From contig OZ076409.1 in the NCBI GenBank assembly GCA_964187785.1, forward strand, positions 12,340,001 to 12,404,000: a stretch of DNA of 64,000 bases, in the 5' to 3' direction. The translations under genes and the position numbers were made by a program. The notes under the pieces were generated by a model that was not told the origin of the DNA, ran no database searches, and worked only from the letters and a program-made list of their open reading frames with translations. Within the stretch, counting starts at the first letter, position 1. Every line of letters begins with the position of its first letter. Origin of the DNA: Amphiscolops sp. MND2022. Lineage: Eukaryota. Below, piece by piece: positions 1,421 through 35,692 of this stretch.

Positions 1421-2272
1421 AAGACAAGAAGTTGTGGAAAAGTTCACTGTGGAAAATTAATATTTGGCAGTGCACAGCGCCGAAAACCCCTATGGGTCTT
1501 CTATGCTGGGAGAACGTTTTTTTTTCTTGATGAAATGTAAAGGGGGACTTTCTGGTGAAAACACTTTTTCGACAAAAATCGCATAGTGCCGAAGAAAACC
1601 CAAAAGGGTGACCCTTTGGTCTTCCTTTTACATTTGCAACCATCAAACAACTTTGGTCCACTGTGGGATTTGATTTCATGTTTTCCTGCTCCTCAGGCCC
1701 CATCACTCGGCAGACACACTCTTGGTAACCTCTATTCCGAATAGAAAGTATTTTCAGCTTTCCACCAACATCTAGTAGATTTTGGCAGAAACTGGTAGAC
1801 TTTTTTTGTTTTCAAAGTCTCGAACCAGAACCAATATAAATTGCTTCTTAGGAAAACTAAAAAAATATTAGCGCTTTCTCACCGTATGATTGCGAATTTT
1901 TCTACGTTATTTCAAGTCAAGGACCATCCGACCATGGAATAACTGCAGCTTGTTCTAAAGGTACGGGCGGTGTTTCAAACGAAGTGTGCTTAAGTTACAA
2001 CATAAAAATTGTTTGTGAAAAAATGTCAACTAACTCTTGCAAGTTAGGTTGAAAACCTCAGGTAAAAAAGTTGTATTATGAAAAGTACTTGATGGTTTCG
2101 CCTATGACTTCCTTGTTGTTTGAAGTTGTCATAAACTGTAACGGAGGGTCGGATTTGCCTGGAAACCAAATAACAATTTTAGAAATTAGAGAATTTTTCA
2201 TTTTAGGGTTAGCGATGAGTATTTCTTTTGGTTATAGAGTTTTTGTAAGTTTGAAACTTTTTTCTTGTTAGC

Positions 2273-2357
2273 AATTGATCTGAATTGAAGCCGAATTATC
2301 CAAAAAATTGGTTTGAAACCAATTTTCTGGATAATTCGGCTTCAATTCAAATCAATT
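2273..2357. repeat. near-perfect 85-bp palindrome (42-bp arms, 1-nt spacer)
   Basis: AATTGATCTGAATTGAAGCCGAATTATCCAAAAAATTGGTTT-G-AAACCAATTTTCTGGATAATTCGGCTTCAATTCAAATCAATT, with 2 mismatches between the arms. Confidence 0.95.
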
Positions 2358-2688
2358 ACGACAAACTTGGGATAAAATAAGATGATTTTGAAAAGGTTTG
2401 CAGTTTTGAGGTGTAAACGGTCGTTTTGGTTCAGGAAAACCCAGTACGTTCATTAATGGTCTGCGCGTTGATTGACTTTGCTATACTAATGCTCTCTGTT
2501 TTAAAAGGTCTGATGCTCAAGGAGACTGGGATTGTTTTTCAAGAGAATGTTTCTTTCTCAGGTTTACTTTTCGCTCCGTTTATCTCCAGTATAATTAACT
2601 CAGTTTCCTTCTTCCAATGGATAAACATACAATTTACTCTCGCGAATTCTAACTGGTCAATTGTATTAACAGAAGAACTAATACTATC

Positions 2689-2966
2689 TGTGTCATTCAA
2701 GAAACTCATGAATGACTTTCCAATGAAACAATCGATGTTGTGATGATTAACAATTAACGTAGGTTATGTAATTTCACTTTTGAGTCAACGATTTACGAGA
2801 AAGTCAGCATGGTTAGTGAAACCTTTTACTTAATTTTGTGGGAAATTGAATACTTAGCTAAATTTGCTGGTATTGTAGATTTGAATCAATTCAACTGAAG
2901 ATTTTACAAACACTGATTTTCTTCTACGAAAACTACCCCACGAAGTGTAGTCGCCCCTAACGGCAA
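2689..2966 (+). repeat. 5' LTR of BEL/Pao element
   Basis: TGTGTCATTCAAG...GCCCCTAACGGCAA, repeated at 8486-8764. Confidence 0.95.
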
Positions 2967-2975
2967 ATTCAAATC

Positions 2976-5900
2976 ATGACAACTCCTTCTCAAGTCCAAG
3001 TGGAACAGAGGGCTAGAAGTTTGTCTTCAAGAAACTTTACCAAAGCATGTAACAGGTATGAGACTTTTCTATCTGAAGTTGAAAAATCTGCCGAAGAAAA
3101 CCAATTGTGTTTTGAAGACATTGTGAATACATGGAGTCTTCTTCAAGAAAAGCAAAATGAGTATTTGCTTAAATTAGACCAAGAAAAGTACGATAATGAA
3201 ATTTCTTGGATTGACGAGCCTGAAAATCGATTTCATGCACTAAGATCAAAAAAGTGCCAACTCGAAATCTTACTGAAAGAAGAGAAAATGAAAAGGGAAA
3301 AAGAGGAACTATATCAGAAAACTATAGAGCTTGCTGAATCAGATGAATTGAAACGTCAAGATGAAATAAAAGAGACAGTTAGAAAAATGAAAGAAAAGTA
3401 CAAGGTTGAAGTCAATCGTTTACACAACATTTGTCAATCATTTGAAAACCTTCCAAAAGTTACAGAACGAGTTTTGAAAAACGTCAAATACGACTTCGAT
3501 AACCAATACAAAGAAGTGAAGTTGGTCATTGATTCTCTTTCTGAATTAGTAAACCAGGAGACAATTTTTGAAAAGGAAAACAAAGAACTCACAGAAATTT
3601 CAACGAAGTTTTTTGATATGATGTATGCCGCCTCCAGTTCGGAACCTTTTCAGTCAGAAAACGGCGGCGGTGATGTTTTGCAAGACAGAAAATCGTTTAC
3701 ACACATGGAAAAGCTCAAGTTTCCTAAGTTCAGCGGAAATTGCAGAGACTGGCCTCAATTCAGAAAAGATTTTGAAAAACAAGTTGAAAATGTGATAAAG
3801 GATGAAGCTACTGTGTCATACGCTCTGAGAAACGCTTTACCAGAAAACATAAAAAGTTTAGTGAGGAATATGAGTGATGATTTGAAAGAAATGTGGCGAC
3901 CTTTAGAAGAACGGTATGGTGATGAAGGTAAAATTGTTGAAATTGTGTTGAACGACATAAAACACTACAAGCCTGTGCGAGAAAATGAAGAACGTCGTCT
4001 GTTGAATTTTATTGATATTATTGAAAAAGCTGATCTAGAACTGAAGTACTTAGGACGTGAATCAGAAATCAAAAATAGTACAATCATTTCAATCATTGAA
4101 GAAAAGCTACCAGACGAATTGAGAAGAAAATGGATAGAACGAATTTATGACAAAGAGGGTACAATTGATAAAAGGGATAAGTTTCCCGGATTCTTGAAGT
4201 TTTTACTCGAAAGAAAAATGGTGATTGAATATGAGATCAATTTGACGAAACGTACCGGAGATGATATCAAAGGAAATGTGAAAATGACCATTTCTAAAAG
4301 TGAAGAAGCTGATTTTTCGAAAAACAAGTGTCTTCTTCATCCGAGTGGAACTCATAAAACCGAAGACTGTCGATTGTTTCTGGACAAAAATGCGAAGCAA
4401 AGAGCTGATATTGTTAAAGATAATCGTGCTTGTTTCAACTGTCTCGTCGCTGGGCACACATCCAGAACTTGTCGCACCAGAAAAGTTTGTAGCAAAGCTG
4501 AATGCGGTGAAAATCATCATCTTCTTTTACACGATGATAATTTTTTGAGCAACAGAAATGAAACAAACTGTTTTTCTGCAAAATGTGATGTTTCAAACAA
4601 CCCAGAAAAAAGTTTACTGCAGGTTATGTCTATTGAAGTCAACTCTGGCTCAAACAAACAAGAAGTATTAGCCCTATGGGATTCTGGGTCTACAGTTTCT
4701 TTAATTCTCAACAATGTAGCAAATAACTTGAAGTTGAGAGGAAAACCTGTGTCGATTACCATGGAAACATTGGGCAGAGTTGTCAAAAAACAAACGAATC
4801 TCTTTGTTATGCAAATCAAGGACCGGAAACACAACATAGTGCAAATTGAAGCTTACGGCGATGACGAAATTTCTAGAGATATGTACAATACAGAACTGCA
4901 GAAAAAACTGTTTCCTGAAGATTTTGCTTGTCAAGATAGTCAGAAAGCTCATATTGGTTTACTCTTAGGTTTGAACGTGGTTCAGTATCATCCTGTGCCT
5001 GTGAAAAGAAAGAATAACTTTGTCTTGTTTGAAAATACTTTTGGTAAATGTGTTGGTGGTAGTAGCTGCCACTCGTCTGGATATTCCTTCACCAAGGTTA
5101 ACTTCGTGCAGACGGCTATCACTATGGAAGATTTCTACAATGTTGAAAACTTAGGAATTGCTTGTAACCCCAAATGTGGCAACTGCCAATGTGGTGGTTG
5201 TCCTCTTGGTTCCTCTGAGTTTTCAATCAAGGAACAAAAGGAGTTAGAAATAATTGAAAAGGGTTTGACTATTTGTGATAAAGTTTGGACTGCAAAGTAC
5301 CCTTTGATAAAAAGTTCGAAACAATTGCCGAATAACTTTCACGTTGCAGAGAAGATGTTATTCACTACCGAAAGGAGGCTCATGAAGGATCCTATTCATG
5401 CGAAAACGTACCAAAGTCAGATCGATGACATGATTGAACGAGGAGTCGCGAAGAAGATGTCAAAAGAAGATCTAGATTATGACGGTCCAGTGCATTATAT
5501 CAGCCATCATGAAGTACTAAAGCAAGAGTCAGCTTCTACTCCTTGTCCAATAGTTTTCAACGCCTCTGCAAATTACAAAAGTCACGTTTTAAATGAGTAT
5601 TGGGCTAAAGGACCCGATCTACTGGGCAATCTTTTGGGCATTCTAGTCAAATTTAGAGAAAATTTTGTGGGCTATATCGACGATGTGAAAAAAATGTATC
5701 ATACAGTGCGACTAGATCCTAAAGATCAACAGACACATCGTTTTTTGTGGAGAGATTTCCGACAAGATGATAAACCAGACCATTATATGATGCAAGTGGT
5801 TTCTTTTGGTGACAGACCCGCAGCAACAATTGCTCAGCTCGCCTTAAGGAAAACAGCGGAAATGGCGAATGACGAGTACTCGGAAGAAAAAAAGGTTGTT

Positions 5901-8456
5901 CTAAGTTCAACTTATATGGATGACATTGTCGACAGCGTCCATGATCATGACGTAGCCACTAAACGAACTAAAAAAATTGATGAAATGTAAGCTGAAGGAT
6001 CTTTTAAAATCAAAAACTGGATTTATTCAGGTCATAAGGAGCCGCCATCTGATATAGTAGGTCTCGCAGCTCATGAAAAAGTTTTGGGACTTTACTGGAA
6101 TTTGCAGAAAGATGTTTTTGTTTTCAAGTCGAAAATTGTCATCAAGCCAAAATCGGGAAAAGAACCCATCAAATCGTACCATGCTGCAGAGGATCTCAAA
6201 AGGGATGGTATTGACAATTTAACAAGACGACAAGCTTTGAGTCAAGTCAATTCCATTTACGACCCCTTAGGATTAGCAACACCATTCATTCTGAAAGCTA
6301 AAAAACTGATGCGAAAAACATGGAAATCAGAAGAAGCTTCTGATTGGGATGATGCCTTGTCGGATGAACTCACTACTGAATGGATTTTGTTGTTTCAAGA
6401 ACTTTTTGAAATGACCGAAATTGAGTTTGTGCGTTGCATTAGACCGTATCACAATGTTGGTGATCCAATACTTGTCATATTCAGTGATGCCTCCAAAGAT
6501 GCATATGGGGCAGTTGCCTACGCGGTATGGACTCTCTCAAACGGGACTAATGAAGCTAGGTTAATTGTTGCTAAAAGCAGACTAGCCCCGAAGAAGCAAA
6601 TATCTATTGTACGACTGGAATTGTGTGGTGTTTTGGTTGCTGTCAGACTAAAAAAGTTTCTTTTCAAACATTCCCGACTCCATTTTAAAGATGTGAAGTT
6701 CCTTTGTGATTCTGAAGTTGTGAGAGCAATGATACAAAAGGACTCCTATGGTTTCAACTCTTTCACTGGAGTGAGACTGGGCGAAATTCAGGAAACTGAA
6801 AATCGGAACGCTTTCTATTGGGTCTCAGGTGAAGTCAATGTAGCTGATTTAATTTCTAGAGGGTCTTCTCCGAAAGAACTCAGAGTTGATAGCAAATGGC
6901 AAACAGGACCTTCATTTCTCAAAAATCTTGTGTTTGAATGGCCCCTTGAACAAAAAATGTATGCGTAAGAGCTACTGCCAGAAGTTATTTCCTGCAAAAG
7001 TTTTCTAGTTAATCAAAGAAATTCAACTCCTTTTGTGGAATTTGACACTACTAGATTTTCGAATGTTAACTCACTTGTACGAACTGTTGCCCGAGTGTTG
7101 TCAGTTTGTTCTTCAAGATCGTTCAGGAAAGTGAAAGATACGCCAAATACCGAAAAAGTGAAAGAAGCCTGGGAATTTATAGTGAGGTCTGAACAAAACA
7201 AGATTATGACAGATTTTGAAGCTGGAAAATTTGATTCATTGGGTGCTTTTTTGGACCCGAATGGAATTATTCATGTGGGGCGGAGGATTCAACAGACAGT
7301 GCCTTTAATTCCAAAGTCGCCATTAGTTGAACTCTTGATCAAAGATGCTCACGAAATGGGACATGGTGGAGTTTTACACACAGCCAGCAAAGTCAGAACA
7401 AAAGTTTGGGTTTTTCATTTGTTGAAACTAGTAAAATATATCCTGAAGAAATGCACAGGTTGCAAAATTTTCAACAAAACCAGAGCTGTTCAGTTAATGG
7501 GAGCACATACTGATGAAAGAACTCAACTTTCATATCCTTTCTCAAGCATATGCGTTGATCTTTTTGGACCGTATGAAGTTAAGGATTGCTTCAGAAAATC
7601 AACTGTAAGGAAAGTGTATGCGGCTATTTTTACATGTTTGTTTTCCAGAGCAGTTTACTTGGACATTGTTCTGAGCTACTCAACAGAAGAATTTTTGCAA
7701 ACATTCCGAAGATTTGTTACTATAAGAGGTTACCCCGAGGTGATTCATTCAGATTCTGGCACACAATTAGTTGGTGCAAACAGGCAACTCCAAAGTGTTT
7801 ATCGAGTTCTCGATCCTGACATTTTGTCAAAAGAACTGCTTTTCAAAGGAGTTAGATGGGAGTTTGCACCAGGCTGTGCACCTTGGCGTCAAGCATGTGC
7901 AGAATCATTGATCGCTTCTGTGAAAAAATGTTTGTTCTTCGCAATTGGTAGTCAAGTTTTATCCCTTATCGAATTCCAGACAGTGCTGTTTGAGAGAGCT
8001 AATTTGCTCAATGATCGTCCAATTGGCAAGCATCCTACTCAACCCGAAGATGGTTTTTATTTGTCTCCCAATAGTCTTCTACTTAGCCGAACAATGAATC
8101 AATCGGTGCCTTTCATCCATGTCAAAACAGAAAAGATGGCTCGACATAAGCTAGTTGAGACTATTATGAATTCGTTCTGGAAGAAATGGCGGCAGTCTTT
8201 CTTGCCTCAAATGGCCTGCTACAAAACCTGGAAAAAAGAACGGAAGAACGTTCAAGCCGGCGATGTAGTTTTGTTAGAGGATCAAAATGCAATTCGAGGT
8301 ATTTGGAAGATTGGCATTGTAAAAAACGTCTACCCTGGACGTGATAATCTTGTGAGAGATGTGGAAGTTGAAGTTGTGAGTAAAGACGGATCCAAGACAC
8401 TTTTGTCTCGGCCAATACAAAAATTAGTCATTATTGTGCCCAAGGATGAACAGTAA
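2976..8456 (+). pseudogene. gag-pol: BEL/Pao Gag-Pol polyprotein with two in-frame TAA stops (5988-5990, 6966-6968)
   Basis: ORFs 2976, 6084 and 7035 share one frame. Motifs: Gag PKFSG..W..F; triple Cys/His cluster (CLLH..H..C, CFNC..GH..C, C..C..HH.LLH); protease WDSGS; RT YMDD; RNase H FSDAS/RLEL/DSE; integrase H-H-C-C, VDLFGP, SDSGTQ and E; C-terminal FWKKW...W..G.V...PG.D..VR. Confidence 0.95.
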
Positions 8457-8485
8457 GGATGTAACCTTGGTAACCCCGCCCGGAG

Positions 8486-8764
8486 TGTGTCATTCAAGAA
8501 AACTCATGAATGACTTTCCAATGAAACAATCGATGTTGTGATGATTAACAATCAACGTAGGTTATGTAATTTCACTTTTGAGTCAACGATTTACGAGAAA
8601 GTCAGCATGGTTAGTGAGACCTTTTACTTAATTTTGTGGGAAATTGAATACTTAGCTAAATTTGCTGGTATTGTAGATTTGAATCAATTCAACTGAAGAT
8701 TTTACAAACACTGATTTTCTTCTACGAAAACTACCCCACGAAGTGTAGTCGCCCCTAACGGCAA
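8486..8764 (+). repeat. 3' LTR of BEL/Pao element
   Basis: Copy of 2689-2966 with one extra A and two substitutions. Confidence 0.95.
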
Positions 8765-8840
8765 ACTATCTAAGGCAAATCTTCGTGCAAAGTAAAACAC
8801 AGAGTGCCGAAAAATTCTTAGGTAGCTACCAGAATAGAAG

Positions 8841-9098
8841 TTAAAAGGTCTGATGCTCAAGGAAACTGGGATTGTTTTTCAAGAGAATGTTTCTTTCTTA
8901 GGTTTACTTTTTGCTCCGTTTATCTCCGGTATAATTAACTCAGTTTAATTCACCCAATGGATTAACATGCAATTTTACTCTCGCGAATTCTAACTGGTCA
9001 ATTGTATTAACAAGAACTAATACTATCTAAGGCAAATCTTCGTGCAAAGGAAACCACAGAGTGCCGAAAAATTCTTAGGTAGCTACCAGAAAAGAAGT
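8841..9098 (+). repeat. second copy of a ~260-bp tandem duplication; carries the empty BEL insertion site
   Basis: TTAAAAGGTCTGATGCTCAAGG...AATACTATCTAAGGCAAATC...GCTACCAGAA matches 2501-2688 joined to 8771-8840. Confidence 0.9.
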
Positions 9099-9733
9099 TT
9101 CATTGAACATATTCTGTGTAGACAGAAACAAGTTTTAAGTGGAATAATGACTTCTATAGCCCCAATCGACTTGAACATTTTTCTGTGATCCAGACGTTTT
9201 ATGGAACAAACAAGATTTTGGTATATATAACCAACCATATATCAAAAAAGAACCAAAGTCAGAAGTTATCTATTCAGAAACGATTGTTTCGAGACACTGA
9301 AGCAGCCAAAATTACAACATGCATCTTTCGCTAGTATTATTCTCTCGCCAAGATTCCCATATAGAACCATCACAAAAGCATGGATCCATTTTCACTCAGT
9401 GTTGTCCAAAGTGTGCCAAATAGGGGACTACCCTGAAATAGGTGAATGTGAATGATGCAGTGCATTTTTCCCGGGTTTTTTCCATCAGTATTATTGTCGA
9501 TGTAAAACAAGACCCCCGCTATTTTTTCCGCTTTCAATTGGCTCACAATGGACGCCTAATCGAAAATTCACCCCCTCCTTAGTGAAACTCAATTTACTTC
9601 GGATATAACTTGTGTAAGCTTTTGTTCGTTTTGAGTGAAAAATACAGCTCAATTGACTGGTTAGAAATTGATATTAATGAAGGTTTTGGACAATTATCAT
9701 CTCACTTACTAAATACCATGGATGGGTATGCCC

Positions 9734-10618
9734 CCCAGTGTTCGTAGCCATGGAACCCTTGCCATGATCATGGTAAATCTTGCTAAATCATGGTTAACCA
9801 TGGTACCCTTGTCAAGATCATGGCAAACCATGATACATGGAACGCTTGTCAAGATCATGGCAAGATCATGGCAAGATCTTGACAAGATAACCATGGTAAG
9901 ACATGTAAGCTGGTATTAATTGTGCATTATTTATTCTTTTCGCAAAAATTCCTTGTCTGCAATTTCTGAAACAGCCATTGTAATAACTTGGGACATAACA
10001 TTTTTTGATCGAAACTAGTTTTTTAATTGAAATTTATTCAAAACTTGTTCAATAATTTTCTGCACCTTATGACCGAGTTTTGTTACTTGAGAGCACGGCA
10101 TTGTTACAACTATCATAAATTATCATACAAAGCAAACTCCGAATCCAGATATTGCAACTTGCGGGTTTGCGATATCGGTGTGAAAATCAACTTTTCTAGC
10201 TATGATCGGTTTACATTTATGCAAATCATGCTATTACATTTTCTATTGAGGTAATGGATTCTAATTACTGAAGTTTGAGAATGCAATAAAAATTTATAAT
10301 GGTCGGAGCAGAAACGTTTTTCCTTTAATGTCTTCGAGTATCAGTTTTTATTCTGTATAATCCTATACATGTCTGTTTTTTGGTCCGAATATATTTTTAG
10401 ATACTAGTTACAATTTGAAAACAAGATCGCTGAATTTTCCAAAAGTTTCGCTAATGGTACCATGGAACCCTTGCCAAGATCATGGTTAATCATGGTTAGC
10501 CTTTGCACGATCTTGCATGGCCATGGTATCCTTGCCAAGATCATGGCAAGATCTTGGCAAGGCTAGCAAGGAACTTGCCATGGATCTTGGCAAGGGTACC
10601 ATGGCTTCGAACACTGGG
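9734..10618. mobile_element. non-autonomous TIR DNA transposon (CACTA/EnSpm-like MITE)
   Basis: ~31-bp TIRs CCCAGTGTTCG(T/A)AGCCATGG(A/T)ACCCTTGCCA, flanked by CC/CC (2-bp TSD). Arrays of CAAGATCATGG / CAAGATCTTG subterminal repeats at both ends. No transposase ORF. Confidence 0.8.
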
Positions 10619-13199: not shown

Positions 13200-15270
13200 G
13201 TAAAAAAAAACCGTTTGATATAAATTTTTTCCTTTCCCATATGAAATATGGGCGGAACATAACAAACGAGACCGATTACATGAAGTTTGGTGGAAGGAAT
13301 CCAGCAGCGACCTGAAACAATCAGTTTATGCAAAACTGAGAAACCTCACTGAAGCGCTTATTAGATCAAAAAACGATAAAAAGTACAAAACAAATTCGAA
13401 CAGAGTTATGATATGAAAACTTTCCATCGGCAACCTAATGAAATGGTCGGCAAACTCCAACATTCTATTTTTTTCTTATTTCAGCAATTCTAGTGACATA
13501 TCAAAGTTCAACGATTACTTCCCTAAAGTAGGCACTAAGCTGGAAAAAGCCATCAGCTTTACACCATACTCTTCTATATTGGAGAACCAAGTACAATCAA
13601 AGTTCCTTAAACCTGTCTCTGAGAATGAAATCGGAAACATAATACAAAAATTGAAGAATGAGAGATCCTCTGGTTCCGATGGCATTTCAAATAAAATGTT
13701 GAAACTTGCATCTTCAGTCAATGTTACATCTTTAACAATATTAATGAACAGGAGTATGGAAAGAGCTACTTTTCCTCATGTACTAAAAATAGCTAAAGGT
13801 ATTCCAATTTACAAGGAAGGAGATAGTGAAAGTTTTGAAAATTATAGTCCATTATAACGAACAATGTATAAGAGAATAGGGTTTTAGATTATATAAATGC
13901 ATTTCAATTACAGTCACCATCGCAGTTTGGGTTTAAGAACAGGTTTAGATGGAAAAATTCCTGCCTGTTGTGCTTTTTTTCGATTTGAAGAAAGCTTTTG
14001 ATACCAACAATCATTCGATTTGCTGGAAGAATTAGAGTGTAAGGTTTCAGGGGACCAGTACAGAATTTGTTCAAGTCATATCTTCAGGGCAGAAAATAGT
14101 ACGTACAGTCGGTCAAAATAATTCATACCTTCGAAGTATAATGTGTGGTGTACCTCAAGCGTGAGTGGTTGGGCCGTCATTTCTCATTTTGTATGTTAAT
14201 GACCTTCCAAATGCAGCGACTTTTCGTGTAACCCTTTCGCCGATGATACCAGTGTTCTTGAGCGTATTACAAACTTCAATCTTTCCATTCTAAATCAAAC
14301 TATTCGGGATATTGATACTTGGAGGAGAGGAAATCGACTCAAATGTAATGTAGATAAATCGAAAGCTGTGGTGTTTGCCAACAAAGTGAATCAAGGTTTG
14401 AACTTCGAAGAATATCAAATAGTCATTAAACCGCAATTGAAATACCTAAGTATTGTGATAGATGATAAACTAACTTTCTGTGATCATGTATTGAGACTTA
14501 GAAACGAACTACTGTTCTGTAATTACATCGTTCTCTGAACCAGGAATTACCTAACAAGATCGCAATTGCTTTTCTATTATAAGACACGACACATGTTAAT
14601 GCAATTATACAGGACAGAGTTCTCATTTATGGCTGCACCGCATATTGTAATCTTGATCCGGTCTTGAAGATCCAAAAGCGAATTATTCGAAACTTTTGTT
14701 TTCTTTCTAAGTATGCCAGCGTGTCAGACTATTCGGTAGCAAATTACCTCCCATCGGTATATGAACTTAATGTCTATAAACTTTAAAGTTCATTGTCAGA
14801 TCGATCCGCTGTGAGCATCAGTAATAGTCTACTGGTACCTCGTTGAATTGGGTAAGGACTCAGGTCTGCGAAAAAAAACGAAGTCTGTGTCCGTTTCGGA
14901 AAAAGAAAGAAGCTCGACCATTCACTTCAAAAACGAATACCCGAACTTTATAACAAAATGTTTGAAACATCAATATTGGCTCAGTCAGATGAAATTTGTA
15001 GTTTCCATGACAAAAATGCTAATCGATGTTGTGACGAATTCTCCTCCATTTTGTTCTGGGAAACCAGGACATTGTTGGTTTTGTTTACTACCTCTCACCC
15101 TTGTAGTAGTTATTGTACTGTGTGTGACGGGCCTAACCCAGCCTGCTCTGTACGGTGTCTACTGGGTTCTCTGATGCTGGGTAGCCTTTGGTTTGAAGTT
15201 TGTACAGTCTTGTAGAATCTTCTTTTTTGGGTTGAAAGGTTATTTTCTGAGAACCCAGTAGATACCTACC
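13200..15270 (+). mobile_element. decayed non-LTR retrotransposon (CR1/L2-group LINE) ORF2 and 3' UTR
   Basis: ORF 13438-13857 (FNDYF..., EIGNIIQKLKN..SSGSDGISNKMLK, FPHVLKIAK.IPIYK.GD...NY.P), followed by broken RT motifs QFGF, DLKKAFDT, CGVPQ, FADDT and KYL..VIDDKLTF. Confidence 0.85.
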
Positions 15271-16460: not shown

Positions 16461-18171
16461 TACTGAAGATTTTTTCTGAAACAAATTTTGGAAAAATGAT
16501 CAAAAAAAACTTTTCCCCACAAAATTTTCGGTTTTTTGAGCTTTTCTGTCAAAGAAAACAGTGTTCCGAGTATCAAGATTGACCTCTTTGGTTTTTGTTT
16601 TTTTTGTGGAACTGATGAGTTTATATCTTTCAATAATGGTGGAAAAAAATTACGATTTTTTGGCTCTTTGCGACTTTTTTCAGTTTGTTCGGTATTTTCC
16701 TGAAAATAGGGTTCTCTTTTTTGCAAATTAACAATTCCGTAAATTGAAAAAAAATTGAGAGATTGCGTACTCTCGAATTGGCTATTTTGTTTGCGCTGGT
16801 CGATGGAAGACATCGATTTCGGAAATAATTTGGAAGTTCAATTCAATTAGAGTTTTGTTTTTAAAAATGATCAAATCGTTCGAATCCAAAAAATAAAAGT
16901 TGTCCAGACAACAGAATAATAAGTATGCCAGCTATTTTGAGACACAGGAAGGTTGTCGTAGTCGCTGAAGTAGACTAAGAATATTTCCATTCAATTCGAA
17001 TTTGGTTGTTGGAGTATTACTTATTAATGTCTCAAACAAAAGGCACCCAAATTATGAAGTGGTTCAATAAAATCATGAAGAGGCGTGCTCTCTGAAGTTT
17101 GGGCGTGTCTCCAAAACAACGTATATGACGTCATAATCTCTTCCGTTTCCATGAAAACGTTTCAAATTCAGACGCAGATTTGTTTCATCGATCAAGAATT
17201 TCACAACAGGAGGAGTTTGATGGCGCTTGAGAGGATGCTTTTATCTAGCCGGTCGTAAGACTCAGTGGAGCCTGCAGGTATATTGGACATCCAACTAATG
17301 TGAAATATCGCCTCATTTTTGCCTAGAAACCGAACTTCGCTTCACTTTGAAGTATTTTTGGTTGAGAGCTTCCTTGTGTTCGTATATGGGTCACTTCCAT
17401 CTGAGTTCAATGCTCACTTTACTATGTTTTTCGGATGTTGATGTTAAGCTAAATACAGCAAGAGGCCTGGTTGTAAAATCAGTATTCACTGAAGTATAGT
17501 TCAATAGTAATAGACTATTTATGACATGAAAGTACTCATATAACTGGTATCTGCAAGCTGCTGGACAAACCGGAACTTGTTATTCTAAAGGTGCCAGGCT
17601 TCTCGGCTGTACTTGATTTTTTGAACGGTAGCACTTCTAACATTTCATTTTGTAGGCAATCCATTCGTTCAGGACCTGTTTTTACAATGAATCGCTCAAA
17701 ACATGCTTCAGTTAAATACGTGAGAACATTGTCTAGCATTGAAGAACCTAATTCCACTTTAAAAGATCCTAATAAAAATCCATAACTTTTTAAAATATAC
17801 CTTTCCAAACGAAATTTGATCATAACTCAGTGTGATTTAGGCAAAAGTAAACTTGATTTAAAATCGTACTTTTCCGTGCATTGGATTTGATCAAGTAAAT
17901 TAGATTTAAACAAGCAACCGTATAGGAAAGAGAAATCAACTTTTAATTATACTTTTTAGGTAACTGTTACCTCGTATATGGGTTCCTTCGCCAAGCATCT
18001 AGGTAAATAGCTCAAGGTATAAAAAACTGTTGAAGTAGAACTTCAAGATTGAAAAGCAGAATATGAAAAGCAAATGAATATCTGAATTTATCGATGTCTA
18101 GCAATTTTGACAGGTGTTAGTAAATAGACTGTTCACACTTATGCGTTTTGTCTAGCACTAAGGTTAACTTT

Positions 18172-18572
18172 TGAGCTGTTAAAAAGTTGTGTGGTGGTTT
18201 CTTTTAGGAGTGTTAGTACTGACATAAGAAGTCTAAGATTTTAACAGCGGAGTCGTCTTATCTTATATCTTGTAGCTAGCTAGTTCTGAGAACAATCTAT
18301 TTCTGAGATCTCAGTTATCGAAGTGCGGGAGGAAGACCGATTGTTAGGATGAATTCTCAATTTCTCCGAGTAGATATATTCTATTAACTAGGGTAGGTTA
18401 CATCAATTAACAATGTGACAGCAACAGGATGAATCAGGGGAGCTTGATACAGGATCTATTAAATGAAGTTTCTTAGCTTCTAAATTAGATTACATTTACT
18501 AATTGCTTTGGTTAAGAGTTCAGAGTATTTCAGATTTATAGAATCTTTGAGGACATGCATCATGGCATCACA
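18172..18572 (-). repeat. 3' LTR of the giant Gypsy element
   Basis: Plus strand TGAGCTGTTAAAAAG...CATGGCATCACA, same length as 35693-36093. Confidence 0.97.
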
Positions 18573-19630
18573 ATCAACCGGGAATTTAAAATAAATTACA
18601 TATATGCACTTTGGGTTTGAGGAGTTCTAGAAGTTTTTGTTATATGCATGGGTTTGTTTCATATGTGTTGTACTAGAGTTGTATGAGTTTCGTTTTGTAG
18701 AGTACCATACTTAAGGAGTGAGAACAACCTAAGACGATTTGACTTCTTACGTCATAGACGATTCAATTGGTGCAAAAAGGTTCAGGCAAGGTTCAAGTTC
18801 TTTCAGTTTCTTTGACTGACAAGTTCTTTGAAGTTATTGTTGACAACTATTTATCATTTCATGTTTCTTTTTCGTATCAGCCATCAGCTTGTTTGAAAAA
18901 ATTCTTTCATCAACATGAGTTAGTCAGCATTGAAAACTTTTCAAGTTGAAGAATTAAAGCGTGAAGTTGTCAATGAGTTGTGAACCAACATTGGCGGGTA
19001 TGTGAACCAAAAGTGAAGAAGTTTCGAAAAGTCAAGGTTCAAGTGAGAGTTCCTTTTCAACGAAAGTGAAGAGTAGAGCAGAGGCAAAAGTTGAAAAAAA
19101 ACTTTGGCAATTTCAAGTTTCAAACATTAGAAAACTAGAAGGGACATTTTTTAAGAGTTCCAAAGAAAAATTTGGAAAATTTTTGGGAATGCTTTTGGGG
19201 ATTAAAACAAAGGTGTAGAACATGTTTTGTAAAAGAAAAAATTTTTGTCCAAAAATCTTAGAAAATTTCTTGTACTGTAGGTAGGACTTGTGTTCTGTAA
19301 AAGATGGGTATTGGAGATATATTTTTGAAGTGTATTATAGATGTATCAACATAATTAGATAAGATTAAGTTATTGTACTATACACAAGACAATAGGAGCA
19401 GATAATATTGTGGTTACAAAGATAATTATCGGTAGAATTTTGAAGGGATTTTGCAATAATGGGGTAATTAGAATGCGATTACAGAAGAATAAGATTATAT
19501 AAGAGTATATAGCACTAAAGATTAGGGAAGAGTATATAGCATTACACTGTATTAAAGTTATAATTTGATTAAAATAAGTTACAGGTTATATTGGTTAAAA
19601 GTGATTATACAGTTCAGTTTGAAAATTGAG

Positions 19631-19852
19631 TCAAGTTTTGATTATAATGTTTGAAATTTGGAGTGGAGTATAGTCCATTAGAGTTTGAAGACCAGTCAAG
19701 AAGTCAGCATTTGAGGTGTGAAGACCAGTCAAGAAGTCATCGTGGAGTGTGAAGACCAGTGACGAGGACAAAATTTGGCAACGTCGATGAACCCAAAGTG
19801 GAGATGGATGTTGTTGACCATCGAGTGTGGGTGGAGTGAAGAGTTTCAGCAT
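19631..19852 (-). CDS. small orphan ORF (73 aa) with a 33-bp internal repeat (DFLTGL(H/Q)T)
   Basis: ATG-started, same strand and codon bias as the element. GAAGACCAGTCAAGAAGTCA is repeated. Coding status is uncertain. Confidence 0.3.
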   Translation of the reverse strand: MLKLFTPPTLDGQQHPSPLWVHRRCQILSSSLVFTLHDDFLTGLHTSNADFLTGLQTLMDYTPLQISNIIIKT

Positions 19853-19969
19853 GTGTAGGAGTTTTTTGAAGGAGTGATCGACAGCTACATCTCAAACATC
19901 ATTGAAGAAGGATGATGGATTCAAGAAGAGATGGAGTTGAAGAGTGATAAAAGTAAGTAGAATATTGTT

Positions 19970-20422
19970 TTAGTTGTAGAGAGGATGTTGTTGAGGTGGG
20001 TGTGCCTGATGTTGATGAGGATCATAGTGTTCGAGTTTCTGGGTATATCCAAAACTATGAAGCATCTCGTTAAATGCGTTTGTGGCTTCGTGTAGGGCAG
20101 CTTGAAAATATTGGTCTTTAGACGTGAACGCCGAGTTTAACACAAAAACGACGTTAGAAGCCGTTTCACAAATGGCAATTTTTGGTCCGGCGACATGAAT
20201 CCTTGAATATTGTTCAAATGTAATGTGTTTCTTTTTGATTTGGGCGACATTATATAGGACTTTCAGAAAGACGATAAGAGATTTTGGCGATATTTTATTG
20301 TTATTGATCTCCAGGGAAATTTTGTAGGCCTTTGTGTGAAAAATAGCTGCTTTTAGGCTATGAACTTTTGAGTGGCTGGAAGTCATTGTTATTATATCTT
20401 GTATTTCAGCGTTGGGGGCCAT
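19970..20422 (-). CDS. orphan accessory ORF (150 aa) of the Gypsy element
   Basis: Intact ATG-to-stop ORF in good context (GTCATGG), preceded by a pyrimidine-rich tract. Globular-like composition with a Q/H/P tail. No family recognised. Confidence 0.6.
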   Translation of the reverse strand: MAPNAEIQDIITMTSSHSKVHSLKAAIFHTKAYKISLEINNNKISPKSLIVFLKVLYNVAQIKKKHITFEQYSRIHVAGPKIAICETASNVVFVLNSAFTSKDQYFQAALHEATNAFNEMLHSFGYTQKLEHYDPHQHQAHPPQQHPLYN

Positions 20423-20841
20423 GACGAGAGAGTCCTGTAGAAGACGAAAAAGGAGAAGTGGAGATGTTCTGAAAGAGAATGGAAGGAGGAGGAAGAAGAA
20501 TGGATGTTTCTAAAACAAAGGAAGTGTAAGAAGAATGACAATATCAAGTCAAAGATGTACAACAAAATTGGGTGCTATAATGTATCATATGTAGTGTTGT
20601 GCTATATTGTCTTGTATGTCTTGTATTGTAGTTTTTTTTGATAGAAATAGTTAGCTTTTTGACATGTACTGTAGGAAAAAATAGTGTACTTGAAAAATAG
20701 TCCTGAGATTTCATTCAAAAGCAAGAATTTACTTTAAATAAGTAGGTAAAAATGAAAATACCTTTTATAATGTGCCACAGATGTATCATAGAGTGTACCA
20801 GAGAAGAAAAATTAGGAACTTTATATTACCTGTAGAAGAGT

Positions 20842-22224
20842 TTAATGAAGATTAGTTGAGTTAAAAAGAGTAGTTATAGTTTCCAAAGCAGATTGGATTG
20901 CTTGGGATGGTTGAGTGATGCGTTGAGAGTCTAAATCGAGTGTCTGAAGGAGTTTGTGTGTTCTGTCGTAGCAGTGTAGTATATGTGTGAGTGTTGTGAT
21001 AGATGTTTCAGAGGAGTTTCGTTTATAGGGTTCAAGTAAACTTGTTATGTCGCGAAGTGTTCGATTGTTTAATACAGAGGAAAGTTTGTCAGGAGCGTTT
21101 TTTATGGGTGAAGCGTGTGCTTTATGTTCAGTTTTTTGTTCAGCTTGTACCATGAAAGAGATAGTTTTGGCAGAGATAAAGAGAAGTTCATTGTAGGAAT
21201 ACGTTTGCTTGTAGAGTGCTGTATAGTACGTTCTATCTTTATCGTCAAGTGGAGAAGATACTAGGTGTTTAATAACAGTAAGAGGTTTGGCAATTTGAGT
21301 AGGAATGTTGCAAGGCAACAAAAAATCATCGTAATGTATGAGATATTCTTGAGGTACAATAAGTGGGCGTGAAGTATTGTTGTATGGAAGCAAACAGATA
21401 TATTGTTTTATAGGGTCATAGTTTCGAAGGTAGCCTGTTATACAGGAGTGGTCCAGAGTGTACATATTTGTCATTGTGAACAGTGATGTATATTTGTAAT
21501 TGACAAAAATGTGATTTTGGGGTTTCGTGTATTGCAGGAATTTAGTATATGTTTGATGATGAGTAGCTTTTTGTGCTATAGAGAGAAAAAATGGATCAGA
21601 TTCATCTGTTTTGAGATCGTATATAGAAGGTCGAAGAAAATTGAATTGGAGAGAGAAAATTTTAACTCCGTTTTTGACCCAATATTGGTATGGACCCATT
21701 ATTTTGGAAGCAATGGATGTGAAGAAGTCTTGATTTTTGTCAAATAAGCGAAATGAATAGTCAGTAGGATGCATATATAGAGAAGTTGGCTGTGCTTTGG
21801 AGACGAACTCGTCAGTAGAAAGAATTGAGGTCAAATAATCGTCGCGGTTCGTGCAAAGTGAAATTTTTGAAGGTATTGAAGGAGGATATATTGGTGATGA
21901 AAGAAAGATTGGATTTTTCATAATTTCATATCGTTTTTTTGGAGGAGGTGGTGTCGATTGTGTATGATCAGTATCATCTTGTGGAGGAGTTGGTTTTGAA
22001 TTTTCGTTTTCAACTGTTGTGTGTTCTATTGGTTCAAGAAAAGTTGGAGGTGTTTGTTCTGAAGTCTCAATATAGAAAACAGGAGAATCATTTGAAAGAG
22101 GTCTAGTTATAAGATCTGTTGGGGTTGCTTGTTCAAGCTGAGTTTGTAGGTCAATTTGTGCTTGTGTCATTGTTTTAAAAACATCAACAATCACAGTGTT
22201 ATCTATTCCAAGAGGCCTTAGCAC
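20842..22224 (-). CDS. orphan accessory ORF (~460 aa) of the Gypsy element
   Basis: Long uninterrupted frame in AT-rich DNA downstream of env. Contains PPPPKKRY (NLS-like). No family recognised. Confidence 0.75.
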   Translation of the reverse strand: MLRPLGIDNTVIVDVFKTMTQAQIDLQTQLEQATPTDLITRPLSNDSPVFYIETSEQTPPTFLEPIEHTTVENENSKPTPPQDDTDHTQSTPPPPKKRYEIMKNPIFLSSPIYPPSIPSKISLCTNRDDYLTSILSTDEFVSKAQPTSLYMHPTDYSFRLFDKNQDFFTSIASKIMGPYQYWVKNGVKIFSLQFNFLRPSIYDLKTDESDPFFLSIAQKATHHQTYTKFLQYTKPQNHIFVNYKYTSLFTMTNMYTLDHSCITGYLRNYDPIKQYICLLPYNNTSRPLIVPQEYLIHYDDFLLPCNIPTQIAKPLTVIKHLVSSPLDDKDRTYYTALYKQTYSYNELLFISAKTISFMVQAEQKTEHKAHASPIKNAPDKLSSVLNNRTLRDITSLLEPYKRNSSETSITTLTHILHCYDRTHKLLQTLDLDSQRITQPSQAIQSALETITTLFNSTNLH

Positions 22225-22433
22225 TTTAAAGTGAAAGTACTATAAATTACACTAACGAGTGGATTTATCAACTTTAGTTGAAGAGTTTTTGAAGACGGTT
22301 ATTATTGGAGAAGTATTGTTGGGCTGAGGAAGATGAACTTCTGCAAGAGTTTCGAGCGGTGGAGGAGTAGCAATTGTGAAGAGATAGTAGGGAAGTGTAC
22401 TGAAAGAGAGTTACAGAAAAACTGAGAGAGTGT

Positions 22434-25141
22434 TCAAGAAAATGGAGGAGGAAAAGGATAGTTTATCCGCGAATAGATTTTAATTGGTGTATCCGTAGTA
22501 GAAGTGACAGGATTGTTAATTAAAGTGTCATGTTGAGTAGTTAGATTGTCATTCGAGTGAAAGTTTTTATGAGTATAATTAGAAAGTGGAGGATGTTGAA
22601 CAGGAGAGAAAGGAAGTGGAGCCGTTTCATGGTGAGAATTGTGGTGTCGTTTCGGAAACAAGTTAAATTTAGGAAATTGAATTTTGTTAGGACGTTTAGT
22701 GTAGAAAGGTGGAGGGGAAGTAACATCTGTAGAATGGTTAATTAGATTTGGAGAAGTGTCAATAAAATTATCTAAAGATTTGGATTTTAAAATCGTACTT
22801 TTGGGTTTTTTGTTTTGAGTCTCATGGAGGTCACTGACCATTCGTGCTGTAAGCACATTAAAAAAACCATGTGCTATAGAACTAAATAAAGTAATATTAT
22901 TTTTGAGATTATATTTAATAGATATTGTTTTGTAAAGTTTTACAATGAGTGTAAGAGTAGCTTGTACGAAAAGAAATGTAGAAAAGTATGTACCACATTG
23001 TGTGAGAATGTAACAAGGGTATCCAAAAAGTGCAATAAAAGCATCTGAAAACCATGTAGGTTTAAAAAGAGGAGTTTAATTCAAGAGTTTATCATGGAGT
23101 CCTATACGTAATGTATTGTAAGGATTACCAGAGTCTTGAGGGGAATCTGCATCGTAATTTGGAGTATTAGATGAAATGAAGGAATAACTAAGAGCTTTGC
23201 CTAGTAATTGGAGTGTAGAATCAGAATGTTTAGAAAATAAAATACGGTTCCAAAATTGATCAAGTTCTGCATTTGAATATATACCAGCATCTTGGGCTGT
23301 AAAAGTATTAGGGCGTATTGTAGTTTTGATTTGTGAAGGTGTAATCATTAGTGGAGGTTTGCGTTTAATAGGTTCAGTTCCAAGAATGTAAAAATCTTGA
23401 TCGTCTGAATCAGGATCTAGTTCAATAATGTTACGTGGATTATTATCACATGTAATTGGTGTAGCATAATCATAAGTTTGTCTTGTAATAGGATCAACGT
23501 ACATTAAGGTATCTTTAAAATGTATTGGTATACGGTCAAAGCATCTATCTGCTTTGTATAAAGGAGATAGAAAATGAGGACAGTCGTAAAGCCAGGCGGT
23601 TGAGCCTTCAACGTATAAGAAGTTACTTCTATTACCGGTTAAGAGAAAACCAGCAAGTTGAGGGTTTTGTACTGACATTGCGAGTATTGTAAGGAGTTGG
23701 TTTCGTTCTAGTTCACATATTGTATGAAGAGTATTTAGTTCTTGTACTGTCATTGATCGGAAAACATGATTAATAGTATAATCGATTTTGGTGTTTATAT
23801 GTGCATCATAATCAATGGTAGCAAAATTGTTTGAGACATTTAATGCAGGGAATACAAATTTGTTATTTGAAGTGTCTAATACTATTTTACCAGAAATATA
23901 TTCATCAATCATGGAATGAGGATTGGGTTGTCCTGTATGCATATTGAAACCATCAATGTATGTTACAAAAAGGTCTGAAAATTGTGTAGAATAAAGAGGG
24001 TCTGGTTTACCACAAAAGGTTTGTGCTGTAGGAAAAACTTCAAACTTGAAAGACTTGGATTATTTGGATGTTGTGTATGAGGAGCATAAACATAGGGATG
24101 TTCTGTACCTTTGATACCAGAAGCTGTTTTAGATTTTATTGGATGTGGAGAATGTACAAAAGAGTCTGTTTCAATCCAATATCTATCTTCAATTTTAGTC
24201 ATACGTCCAATAAAGTCTTGTAAGGTAAAAATTAGACAATAATCATCAGTGAACCAAACAAAAGTAAAATGAGTTTTTGTAGTGGGTTTACAGAAACCAT
24301 CTGCAAAATAGCAGGGTAATGTATGTCCATCGATTATCATGTCATTAGATGTGTCATCATATGTAAGTTCCACTTCAGAAATTTCTAGCCGCCAACTAAC
24401 TAAGTTGACTTCGAATTGATGATGAGCAGGACAGTTATGATAAGGGTTTTGAGTAGGGTCATATATCCAGTTTTTATCAGCAGGCATAAATGTAAATGTA
24501 CCTGTATACATTTCGTTCAATTGATATACAGTGAAAGGGGTTTGATATTGTTCTAAACGTTCTTGAAAACAATGATCTTCTAAGAGTGTAAAAGTTTTGT
24601 TGTATTGAAAGTTATTCAGTATTTTATCATTTGTACCATTTAAATGTCTCATAATGTTTTTACATTCTACTGGATCAAGAGTAACAGGGAGCGGTAATAT
24701 ATTATGATTCCATACGGTTCTATCAACACGACGGTATTTTACGGAACCTTGAAAGCATATTTTCCTTTCTTTCTTTGCATAAGCAACACATTTAAAAGCT
24801 TTGATGCGTTTAGCTTTTGCTCGGACATATACACGGGCTTTAACACTTGCATGCTTAATGTCGGAAGGAGCTTCAGTGCATTGTTTTACATTGAGTAGAT
24901 TAAATTGTCTCAGATTGTGTTGTTTTGCACAGTCATAATGAGAAACCATGAGATTTGTAATATTCGGGTCATCCGATGGAAGATAGTTTTCTGTGTCAGA
25001 GGGTGTTATGGGTATGGAAAAAGTAGAGTTAAATAAATGTAAATAAAGAATTAGATGTGTTATGTAAAAGGTTGTGTAGGGTTTAAAAAGATGTTGTATA
25101 TTTAGGACCGGAATATGGGTTACAGAAGACAATGTTGCCAT
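22434..25141 (-). pseudogene. env: envelope glycoprotein, chuvirus/gB-like class III fusogen (one frameshift ~24048, one TAA at 23076-23078)
   Basis: Hydrophobic signal (FYITHLILYLHLFNSTFS), then HYDC...NLLNVKQC, a Cys-rich ectodomain with NxS/T sites, TFCG..LYST..SDLFV and ICELERNQLLTILAMSVQNPQLAGFLLTG...G...LYDC...CFDRIPI...DPITR...ITC. Reading through the stop gives a TM region and then the in-frame ORF 22434-22856 as cytoplasmic tail. Confidence 0.8.
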
Positions 25142-26324
25142 ATGTGATAGTGGGTATATTGAGATCGCGTTCAAATTCAATATGTACTACTTCAAAAGGA
25201 GCAGGAGAGGTTTTATGTTCCATTTTAAAGACGTGAAATATTGGGTGTGGATATAATCCTTGAAATTTGACTTTGACTTCAAACTTAAGTTCTAGATTTG
25301 ATGTCTGGAGGCGTTTTAGTTCTGTTTCTTTGCGTTTGTGCGATAAGAGGTCGTTGTTGTTAATGAAACGTTCTGCAAGAATTGGAAATCGGGGATCGTT
25401 TTAAGGGTCGTAGATGGTTATACCATCGACTCTTAGTGGATAGTCAGCAAAATTTGGAGTTGGAGGTCTAGAGTGTTCTGCAGTATAGTGTTCGGGCAGT
25501 CTAATATGTGCAGGAACAGGAGTAGGGATTACCACTTGTGAGAAAAGGTCTCCTGATAAAAATGCAGTCTGAGGGTTAGATGAGAGTAGTGAAGCGGTTT
25601 CAAAACCAGAAGTAAAATAAGGAGATTGGAAGAGTTCTGAAGATGGTGTGTCAGAGGACAATGGTTGAGCGTGTTGTCGTACAAGTCGTAATGCAGAAAT
25701 GCTAGAAAGAGCCGAAAAATTGAGTGTTGAAGTGTCTGTACTAAGTCTACGTGAAGGAAGGTCACGAAGATTATATCTATGTTTAGGTACAAAAAGTAAG
25801 CTTGTGTCTTGTGATGGAGCGTAGTCTGAAGTATTATTGTCTAAAAGATTTGAGAGTGATGTAGAGGGTTTTCGAAGAGGTTTTAATGGTGGATAAAGTT
25901 TTGAAGAAGTAGTGCTAAGTTCGGAAGGTAATTTTAGTGAAGGTAGCTTTGTATATTCGGTATCAGGGATTTGTACAAGATTAAGTTGAGGTTGTAGTCT
26001 AACAGTTTTGATAGCTGTAGGATGTTTGTATGTTACGTATTGTTCAACACTTTCAGGGTTTGGTATATGTATAATAGGAGTGTTAATAGGAGTTTGTTGA
26101 GGACGAGTGTTTATAGGAATTTCAGTTATAGGTGGTCTGTGAAGAAGGGAGGAAGAGGTGGTTTCAGAGATGTATGATCTTGATCTTTTAGAAGGAGTAG
26201 TAGGAGTTACATTACTAGAGTTTGTAGTACTAGATACTGAAGATTCAGGTGGGGAAGGAATACTTGGAGCTGATGGAGATATATCAGAGGGAGGATCCAG
26301 GGTTGTTGAAGTGTTTTCAACAGG
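25083..26324 (-). pseudogene. S/P/T-rich ORF3 between pol and env (~410 codons, one internal TAA at 25401-25403, no ATG start)
   Basis: The frame is open from 26324 through the 25401-25661 ORF, and after one stop it continues to 25083, overlapping the env start. Contains PSAP and LYPPL. Confidence 0.6.
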
Positions 26325-26410
26325 TTATGTTTGAGATAACTTGTTATGGGTTATATTTCATTCAACTGGTGTGACTAGTTTTGAGTGAGCCAACGGATAG
26401 AATGACTGGA

Positions 26411-32400: not shown

Positions 32401-35000
32401 AAATTAAGGGCTTCAACTTGAGCATAGTAAGCGTTCTTTTGTGAAGAAAATTGTTTTTTGAAAGCTTGTACAAAAGCGTGCCAATCATGTTTATAAGTGT
32501 CGTTTAAACGAATGTACCAGCTTAGTGCTGTACCTGTTAAAGAGCATTGTATGAAAACCATGCGACGGGCGTGCCAAAATTTATATTCATGTTCCGATGT
32601 AGGTTGTAAACCTAAGGAAAATGTAACACGTGCCTCAATATGTTGTAAATACTCTTCAGGTGTATAGTTGTGATCGAGTCCATCAAAAGGTTTAATGGGT
32701 TCTGATATAGAATTGGAAGAATTAATATATGTTGGGTGTGACATAGTGTTATGAGACATAGTAGATGCAGGTGTTGTATTGTATGTGGGGTTATTGGAAA
32801 TATTAGGTAAAGAAGTAGTTGAAGTACTATGAAAGTGAGGGTTAGTTCTAATTGTTGTTGAAGGAGGATTTGGTATTTGAAATTGAGAAGTTTGTAATGT
32901 AGGAGTGATTGTATTGGATGTATGTTGGGAAGAAAAAGTATTTAATTGATTGGATGTATTGTAATTTATTTGAGATAGTTGTGTATTACTTGGGTTAGTT
33001 TTGGTGAGACTGTATGATAATGGATTAGTTAATATAGGTTGTAATGGAGGTCGAGAAAGATGTCTGGCAGTGGTATAGTTTGTAGATGGGTTGGAATGGA
33101 TGGTGTTAATGTTTAAGGTAGTTTGTGTAGTTTGTACTGAATTGGTTTGAGCTGGAGTATAATTCGAAGTTTGTATTTCAGAAGATGATGGTGGAGTTGG
33201 TGTTTGAAAATGTACTGTATTATTGTTTTGTGCAATGTAGGGTGTATTTGATGAGCTTTGTTGAGGAGTGTCATGGGTGTTTATTTGAGTTGAAAATTGG
33301 GGTGGAACAGAAGGTGGATTACAATTTCGAGGAGATAGTGTTTGTGTCTGAGAGGGTTGAGTAATGTTAGTATTAGATGTAGATAAAATAGAGGTATTGT
33401 CTGGATTTGTATTTGAAGTGTTGTCTTGATTTTGGTTTGTAAATTCATTTTGTGTGATATTGTGGGTAGGAATTATTAAAAGATTTGAATCATCGGTTAT
33501 TGTAAAACTTCGTGTATTTTGTACTGTTTCTTCAGAAAATTCTGATGTATTGTGAATTTTATTTGTTTCAGAAGGATTTGGTTGTTGCATATCTGAGATT
33601 TGTGATAATGGTGGGTATGATGGTTGTTCTTGAGGAGGATCAGGATTTTGAAAAAGATTAACAAGGGCTTCTTGTTCTGGAGATTCTTGTTCTGATTGTT
33701 CTGATTGTTGTCTTGTATATGAAGGTTCAACACTAGAGGTTTGTTCTTCAGGAATTGTTTCATGAGAAGTATCAGGTGTAGTAAAGGGTCTGTTATCTGA
33801 TGTTTCAGAATGTTCAAGTACAAAGTTGTGATCTAAGTTTATTTGTTCAAAATGTGTAACATTTAATGAAGTAAGATCTCGGTAATGTAAATGTTTGTTT
33901 TCATTTTTTACGATGTATGGTAAGAGTTCTATATGTGTTAATATTTGAGGGAAGTTAACATAGGCTTGTTGATCTTTTTGTTCCCAAAATAGTTGGTAGT
34001 TAAATCTAAGAAACTTTAATAAGAATTGTGTAAAAATTTTGACTTGAGGTATAGTGTCATCTGTAAGAATAATGTTGTTATAGAATCTGTACTGAAAATG
34101 TTTTATTTGTAAGATATCTCGTTGTAACCAATAATGAGGATTATCATGTCGTTGGACTTTCGTGTCAAGATCTGGGACCTCGAAATATTCAGATCTGTGT
34201 TTTAGTTCTTGTAAATGAGAAGGACGATAAGGTGGTGTGTCTTGGTTTTCATTGAATTCAATGAGTTTTTGCATGTATGTGTGAAAAACATCTTGTATAG
34301 AAAGTGTAATATTTTGTGGGTGTATAGTTCTAAAAAATGTTCCAAGGTTTATTCCTTTAACAGGGTTAAAAATAACTTGAAAAGGGATTTGTGATGGTGT
34401 AATATCAAGTGTTTTATAGTGGATATAATATAGATAAGAATCACAATGTTCTCGTACTAATGAAATAGTATGTAATATATGGGGTTCTGTTTCAAATGGA
34501 AGTGGGTTTGTGTACTGAAAGATAATGTTTTGTAGAACAGGTGTTACATCTTGTATAAGAGATCGATTTTGTCTTTTGTCAGTAGTGACTGTTAATGGAG
34601 TGGGAAGCATTATATGATATTAAGTTTGATTAGTACAATAAGATTGCCATAGAGGATAGATGTATCGGAAAAGAAGATATTTTGTATTGAATTGTGAATT
34701 ATATGGAAAAATTTGCTCTATGAAAACAACTTGTAAGAAAAAAGTAAGTGCAACACTTATGAAAAGAAGGAATGGGTATTGTATATATTGAATAAGTGTA
34801 TGGAAAGTGTGGTAGATACTAAGTAGTCCAAAAAGAGGTAGTACTATACTTGTTAACATAGAAGAAAAAGGTTGTACTTCAAAGTTTTGGTATGAATGAA
34901 ATTAAGAATTTGTCCAGAAAGAGTGCAAGACCGGCAATGATAGCAACAAAAACCAAAAGCAGACAATGAGTTTAACTATAGTGTCCACTGAAGGCGGCAT
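26411..35000 (-). pseudogene. gag-pol: Gypsy Gag-Pol polyprotein (leader-Gag-PR-RT-RH-IN), disrupted by several stops and frameshifts
   Basis: Capsid-like PFDG..., LTGTALSWY..W..F...F; zinc knuckle CSYCHRTNHSISAC; protease LLDSGAS; RT VYIDD; RNase H VDAS..GLGAVL, RELL, TDHKPL, ADMLSR; integrase HEHSH..CIEC, IDAFSH, TDCGSEY, NGLVE and IGPYKI. Lesions near 34903, 34621, 29868, 29585, 29524, 28520 and 27791. Confidence 0.93.
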
Positions 35001-35690: not shown

Positions 35691-35692
35691 AT

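Follow-up and report, generated by a model that had tools for sequence, protein, structure and literature searches.

A BEL/Pao-lineage retrotransposon with a candidate primer that splicing of its own RNA would assemble

How does an LTR retrotransposon start reverse transcription when no TGG-type primer-binding site (PBS) follows its 5' LTR? The question is raised by an element of about 6.08 kb in total, located at 2689-8765 on the plus strand of the window, that is the whole 64-kb stretch of DNA analysed here. As reported in a first-pass annotation, no TGG-type PBS is present and the 9 nt ATTCAAATC (2967-2975) are fully complementary, in antiparallel orientation, to GATTTGAAT inside the LTR (2878-2886), from which priming by the element's own RNA, with transcription starting around 2878 and the RNA 5' end acting as the primer, had been proposed. 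While the general idea of a tRNA-independent priming by the own RNA gains independent support from covarying relatives, this detailed mechanism is unsupported. Instead, a Tf1-like self-priming, where the primer is assembled by host splicing of the element's own RNA, appears fairly likely, since a TGG-type tRNA site is absent and the 11-12 bases past the LTR correspond to the exon joint that removal of a predicted LTR intron would create.

Identity, boundaries and surroundings of the element

The element and its flanks comprise the following features:

2684..2688 (2683-2688 if 6 bp), no strand: left TSD, 5 bp, the TSD of the relative L004 also being 5 bp
2689..2967, plus strand: 5' LTR, beginning with TG and ending with ..GGCAAA (end at 2966 under the 6-bp reading)
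2976..5990, plus strand: gag-protease-RT part of the polyprotein, with DUF1759 and partial RVT_1, closed by an in-frame premature stop
5991..6968, plus strand: RT end and RNase H region, with Peptidase_A17, in the same frame and closed by a second premature stop
6969..8456, plus strand: integrase region, with Integrase_H2C2, rve and DUF5641, in the same frame
8478..8485, plus strand: polypurine-tract position, weak, with a GGAG end like that of the relatives
8486..8765, plus strand: 3' LTR, with a second copy of the predicted intron at 8610-8676
8766..8770, no strand: right TSD

The two LTRs, 279-280 bp in length, show 3 differences over 279 aligned columns. The TSD can be read as 5 or 6 bp, leaving the LTR end ambiguous by one base (2967 or 2966, respectively); the former is more likely as the TSD is 5 bp in L004, the only relative with both flanks, and as the register of the relatives (LTR ending with ..ACA, followed by TTC) agrees with it. 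In turn, while ATTCAAATC does abut the gag ATG at 2976, the 9 nt previously counted between LTR and ATG are probably 8.

The polyprotein is in one frame, interrupted by premature stops at 5988-5990 and 6966-6968, and is colinear with that of the intact relative L003. DUF1759, Peptidase_A17, DUF5641 and Integrase_H2C2 score above the Pfam cut-off; RVT_1 and rve are below it, yet the order is that of BEL/Pao (protease, RT, RNase H, integrase). The closest named homologues originate from corals and echinoderms, with roughly 35-48% identity. The LTR length, the total length and the TSD are within BEL/Pao ranges (0.2-1.2 kb for LTRs and 4.2-10 kb for elements; PMC8742986). Compared with a polypurine tract of about 10 nt and LTRs ending with CA as BEL/Pao criteria, the element has a weak tract ending with GGAG and both its LTRs end with AA. 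Because of the two premature stops, the window copy is probably not autonomous, so that any mechanism proposed below is that of the element's family rather than of this copy. No tRNA gene was found in the window by ARAGORN. With no TGG in the first 6 nt past the LTR, the element is filed here, from its sequence, as a variant of the BEL/Pao lineage and not as a canonical tRNA-primed member.

Besides, both LTRs end with ..GGCAA(A) instead of CA (2960-2967 and 8758-8765), perhaps by substitution or as an unprocessed end; by eye, the LTRs end with CA in 19 of 20 relatives and with CG in L015.

Regarding the surroundings, the element is inserted in a host repeat (2501-2688 and 8766-9099), which recurs 257 nt further on. 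A near-perfect hairpin with 42-nt arms, 95% complementary, lies outside the element at 2273-2357; over 2200-3200, nothing reached the Rfam gathering score, and nearly all of the many sub-threshold matches to miRNA models fall on this hairpin. At 9734-10618, 36-nt inverted ends flank internally repetitive DNA in a MITE-like arrangement, and a 139-aa ORF at 13438-13857, examined by eye, resembles a piece of a non-LTR retrotransposon protein. Further downstream, a strong G-over-C skew (0.33-0.51) extends across 18 kb (~18000-36000), where no tandem array was found at a score of at least 200, and a 104-nt satellite array of about 190 copies or more occupies 38300-64000.

Complementarity across a predicted intron of the LTR

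Taken alone, the 9-mer would be modest evidence: when the LTR was dinucleotide-shuffled 20,000 times, 0.83% of the shuffles contained it, or 5.9% when allowing six start offsets, and 14 of 5,483 internal 9-mers own a comparable partner. Though real, this match is incomplete as the description of the pairing, which continues from the acceptor into the predicted exon 1, thus reaching 12 nt and taking in the ATG. The parts involved are as follows:

2808..2811, plus strand: end of predicted exon 1 (CATG), putative 5' part of the primer, from the joint pairing
2812..2878, plus strand: predicted 67-nt spliceosomal intron within the LTR, GTTAGT..TTGTAG, 70% A+T
2879..2886, plus strand: start of predicted exon 2 (ATTTGAAT), putative 3' part of the primer, with probable cleavage near 2885/2886
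2967..2978, plus strand: PBS position, pairing over 12 nt (over 11 nt if begun at 2968) with the predicted joint and including the gag ATG

Four exon-1 and eight exon-2 bases together pair 12/12 with 2967-2978. In the DNA of the window, the contiguous match is limited to 8-9 nt, and 11-12 nt are only reached across the predicted splice joint. Among the 84 GT-AG pairs of the LTR, 2812-2878 gives the best match and the runner-up gives 7, while none of 600 random internal 34-mers reached 12 (best 10) and none of 1,500 reached 11 in a further control. Besides, the segment exhibits the features of a spliceosomal intron, namely GT donor, YAG acceptor, ordinary length and A+T-richness, and its donor is the top one of 11 with a generic donor matrix blind to the primer site. 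The 9-mer first noticed consists of the acceptor G, identical to the last base of exon 1, followed by the eight bases of exon 2. As G2878 is the last base of the predicted YAG acceptor and the joint pairs 12/12, an RNA start at 2878 is unsupported.

The match also has the shape expected of a primer: it begins at the very point where the minus strand would be initiated, covers about 11 bases without a flaw and goes no further. As for an upstream start, an AGTC precedes the donor by 27-29 nt in four loci and by 9-10 nt in two, both spacings being present in the window, which is not consistent enough for calling a start site.

Joint matches and covariation among the relatives

A metagenome scan returned 71 related loci, 30 of which have a gag start with an LTR end upstream, the other 41 being unscored as the LTR/gag junction is missing or too degenerate. 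Six of the 30 are repeats of L002 or L031, leaving 24 loci and, among them, 16 distinct scorable ones. No relative was found among the viral contig and genome contig collections searched. A blind scan using guessed ATGs missed L010, L012 and L055 and gave chance matches; it was superseded by fixed LTR ends, which in the relatives were mostly set by eye after that scan, both LTRs with flanks being present only in the window and L004.

A perfect joint match of 10-14 nt, flush with the LTR end, is present in 10 of the 16 scorable loci, namely L002, L003, L010, L012 and L055 (11 nt each), L009 and L057 (10 nt each), L021 and L031 (14 nt each) and L026, where the first LTR-end call gave 0 and the 10 nt appeared only after a post-hoc 120-nt upstream shift taken from the mock-end scan described below. 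The match includes one G-U or mismatch in L018 (14 nt) and L051 (11 nt), is contiguous over 11 nt with no need of an intron in L004, L014 and L015, and is weak in L006 (9 nt). In the truncated L007, L008, L022 and L024, the donor would lie beyond the contig, and what is left of the LTR shows a YAG along with 9 contiguous matching nt; L017, L038 and L062 are too short or deleted for scoring. Several loci being close kin (L003, L018, L021), about 11 distinct primer types are represented rather than 16. In L062 (~670-730), intron and exon 2 seem to be lost, exon 1 being joined to the primer site via a short shared end.

In the intron-bearing loci, the pairing continues 67-316 nt upstream, across an intron of that length with ends that are always GT..AG, the acceptor of L026 being AAG; the contiguous match thereby grows across the joint from 8 to 11 nt in L010, from 5 to 14 nt in L031 and from 5 to 10 nt in L057. 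In a ranking blind to the site, the pairing donor takes first place in 10 of 13 loci, shares it in one and comes third in two.

Covariation in related BEL families, proposed as a check along with the original 9-nt match, could be followed in this set. The exon-2 letters vary by lineage (e.g. ATTTGAA, GTTTCGAA, GATTGGAA or GGTAC), as do the exon-1 letters, and each primer pairs best with its own site. In cross-pairing, the window primer scores 11 at its own site and does not exceed 6 at any of the 15 others, high off-diagonal values being confined to a coral-type group sharing letters. In a null test with 1,500 random 25-mers for each family, no more than one control equalled the observed score in 12 of 17 rows. 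Higher numbers of controls did so for L009 (3 of 1,500), L051 (11), L006 (21, with a score of 8 in this test), L018 (426) and L026 at its first end call (1,500 of 1,500), the null being a perfect-match test, which L018 and L051 fail while both hold one wobble or mismatch. The match is specific to its position: when a mock LTR end was slid 150 nt either way, a score of at least 11 was obtained once among the 4,998 positions lying over 3 nt from the called end.

No TGG-type site was seen in the 20 relatives checked. The most distant locus, L063 (32% RT identity, on a long outer branch), has such a site at ~70-90, two bases past a CA, and may be regarded as a natural tRNA-primed control.

The LTR of L004 holds, in contiguous form, exactly the post-splicing letters of L003, L018 and L021. 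In an RT tree made of search hits only, L004 nests among intron-bearing rows (supports 98/92 and 95/90), which favours a precise intron loss, and its joined form in DNA could then be an indirect sign of intron removal from RNA. L014 and L015 lie in a basal fork that is not resolved in this tree.

Proposed mechanism, alternatives and known systems

In the course of replication, transcription would begin at or before 2808 and the cap-proximal intron would be spliced out, after which the joint would fold onto 2967/8-2978, with about 80 nt looped out. A Tf1-like cut after base 7-8 of exon 2, probably by the element's RNase H, would free a 3' end, and the RT would copy U5, then jump to the 3' R. 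The intron of the 3' LTR would usually stay unspliced and thus be inherited by the progeny, its rare splicing giving intron-less LTRs like those of L004. LTR elements renew the site at each cycle by copying the primer into it; here, plus-strand copying of the primer would likewise rewrite the site, so that the match stays perfect. With a confidence only slightly lower than for splice-assembled priming itself, we lean towards a broader reading, where a broad and old BEL/Pao branch of marine animals would have swapped the tRNA primer for a spliceosome-built one originating from an LTR intron, splicing would gate replication, and the intron would persist since splicing would take out only one of the two copies that are transcribed.

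Several alternatives have to be weighed, the best surviving of which, albeit unlikely, is a primer acting in trans, where a separate short spliced RNA from a 5', 3' or solo LTR would prime a genomic RNA left unspliced at both ends. Intron inheritance would then be explained without any copy escaping splicing, and the covariation data fit equally well. The poly(A) signals are divided, as 15 of 19 relatives have AATAAA or ATTAAA downstream of the acceptor and the window LTR has neither; this absence, like the AAA end of the LTR, also weighs against the splice-assembled primer. Against it, the cis helix folds readily, the predicted mean probability of the helix in the spliced leader being 0.89-0.98 for five of six start points (it drops to 0.36 from the farthest start tested, 2740), and the intron-less families with a contiguous match resemble Tf1, which primes in cis.

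Marginally less probable again, the spliced hairpin could be real but regulatory, acting in translation, packaging or dimerisation, with priming left to another molecule, e.g. an internal tRNA fragment. The helix of the window does include the gag ATG, and the main-clade site TTCGAAAYCC (L002, L003, L012 and L021) resembles the tRNA T-loop motif plus one extra base, which may hint at where the primer came from. Truncated tRNA primers are also known for Ty5 and copia, according to the sections consulted of PMC10886601. However, the gag ATG of the relatives is 17-389 nt from the LTR end while the match starts flush with that end, and the ~11 site sequences would each need another tRNA fragment, yet each fits its own joint. 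Translational control as a conserved role was rejected, the ATG distance varying from 8 to 389 nt.

It is also conceivable, though improbable, that no splicing occurs and that the intervening segment is merely looped out in the folded RNA, both pieces pairing with the site. Splicing is indeed a prediction here, and L004, L014 and L015 require no intron; a looped segment, however, would account neither for the GT start, AG end, strong donors and 67-316 nt length common to all intron-bearing loci, nor for the unspliced leader, where the 9-bp helix has a predicted probability of 0.00 from all of the same six starts.

The start around 2878, with the first 9 bases as the primer, has become more doubtful still. 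Folding alone would allow it, as an RNA starting at 2878 is predicted to form the 9-bp helix (0.82-1.0 per pair), but the duplex amounts to -7.2 kcal/mol vs. -12.5 kcal/mol for the joint, the short contiguous matches of L010, L031 and L057 do not reach 9 nt, and the covarying upstream bases as well as the splice signals are left unexplained. Finally, a chance match in A+T-rich DNA, a reservation made from the outset and suggested by the p of ~0.008-0.06 for the 9-mer alone and the many windows read, is next to negligible given the 12-nt joint match, the outcome of the null tests and the fact that such a match, in different letters, recurs in 15 of 16 scorable loci.

If priming by a splice-assembled primer is true, replication of these elements would be tied to the spliceosome, they would escape tRNA-fragment control at the primer site, and an intron would be inherited through reverse transcription and, at times, precisely lost. 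Such self-priming would also explain the annotation of BEL elements as 'PBS-less'. The literature found places self-priming in Ty3/Gypsy, so that BEL/Pao would represent a second origin. Neither BEL/Pao self-priming nor a splice-built primer was encountered in the literature searched, which left most subscription papers, Repbase notes and supplements outside. By word look-up, primer, PBS, tRNA and intron do not occur in PMC3118150, and nothing on priming appears in PMC12440569 and PMC9094657. The sections consulted of PMC554778 do not discuss the PBS, and BEL/Pao self-priming is not reported in those of PMC554778, PMC8220671, PMC5443660, PMC3601003, PMC6934838, PMC10886601 and PMC3286476.

Regarding known systems, the element shares with the Belpaoviridae (PMC8742986) the set and order of domains, the LTR length and the genome size. 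Members of this family are described by ICTV as tRNA-primed, their site pairing over 18 nt with the 3' end of the host tRNA-Arg or tRNA-Gly (PMC8742986), and the window element differs in having no such site. A primer encoded by the element itself is the likeness shared with a second group. Cer7-type BEL elements are said to encode their own tRNA-like primer, from a tRNA-like gene in the internal region, unlike the exon joint in the LTR considered here.

The closest functional parallel lies with Tf1 and Tf2 of Schizosaccharomyces pombe, Tj1 and Tf1/sushi elements, which have no tRNA site either and where, as far as the consulted parts of the sources describe them, about 11 LTR-derived bases are complementary to a site adjoining the 5' LTR and the primer has to be released by a cut. 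In Tf1, it is the first 11 bases that anneal to the site, the RNase H cut falling between bases 11 and 12 (PMC7175516 and PMC4600332, in the sections consulted). The primer of Tf1 is thus contiguous, whereas that of the window would be split in the DNA by the predicted intron and may begin downstream of the RNA 5' terminus. A complementary stretch of about 11 LTR bases without interruption, as in Tf1/sushi, is found in L004, L014 and L015 but not in the window. Besides, priming is experimentally shown for Tf1 and deduced here from the sequence, and Tf1/sushi elements belong to Ty3/Gypsy while the window element has BEL/Pao domains. All in all, the element is not a member of Tf1/sushi, though it would work like Tf1.
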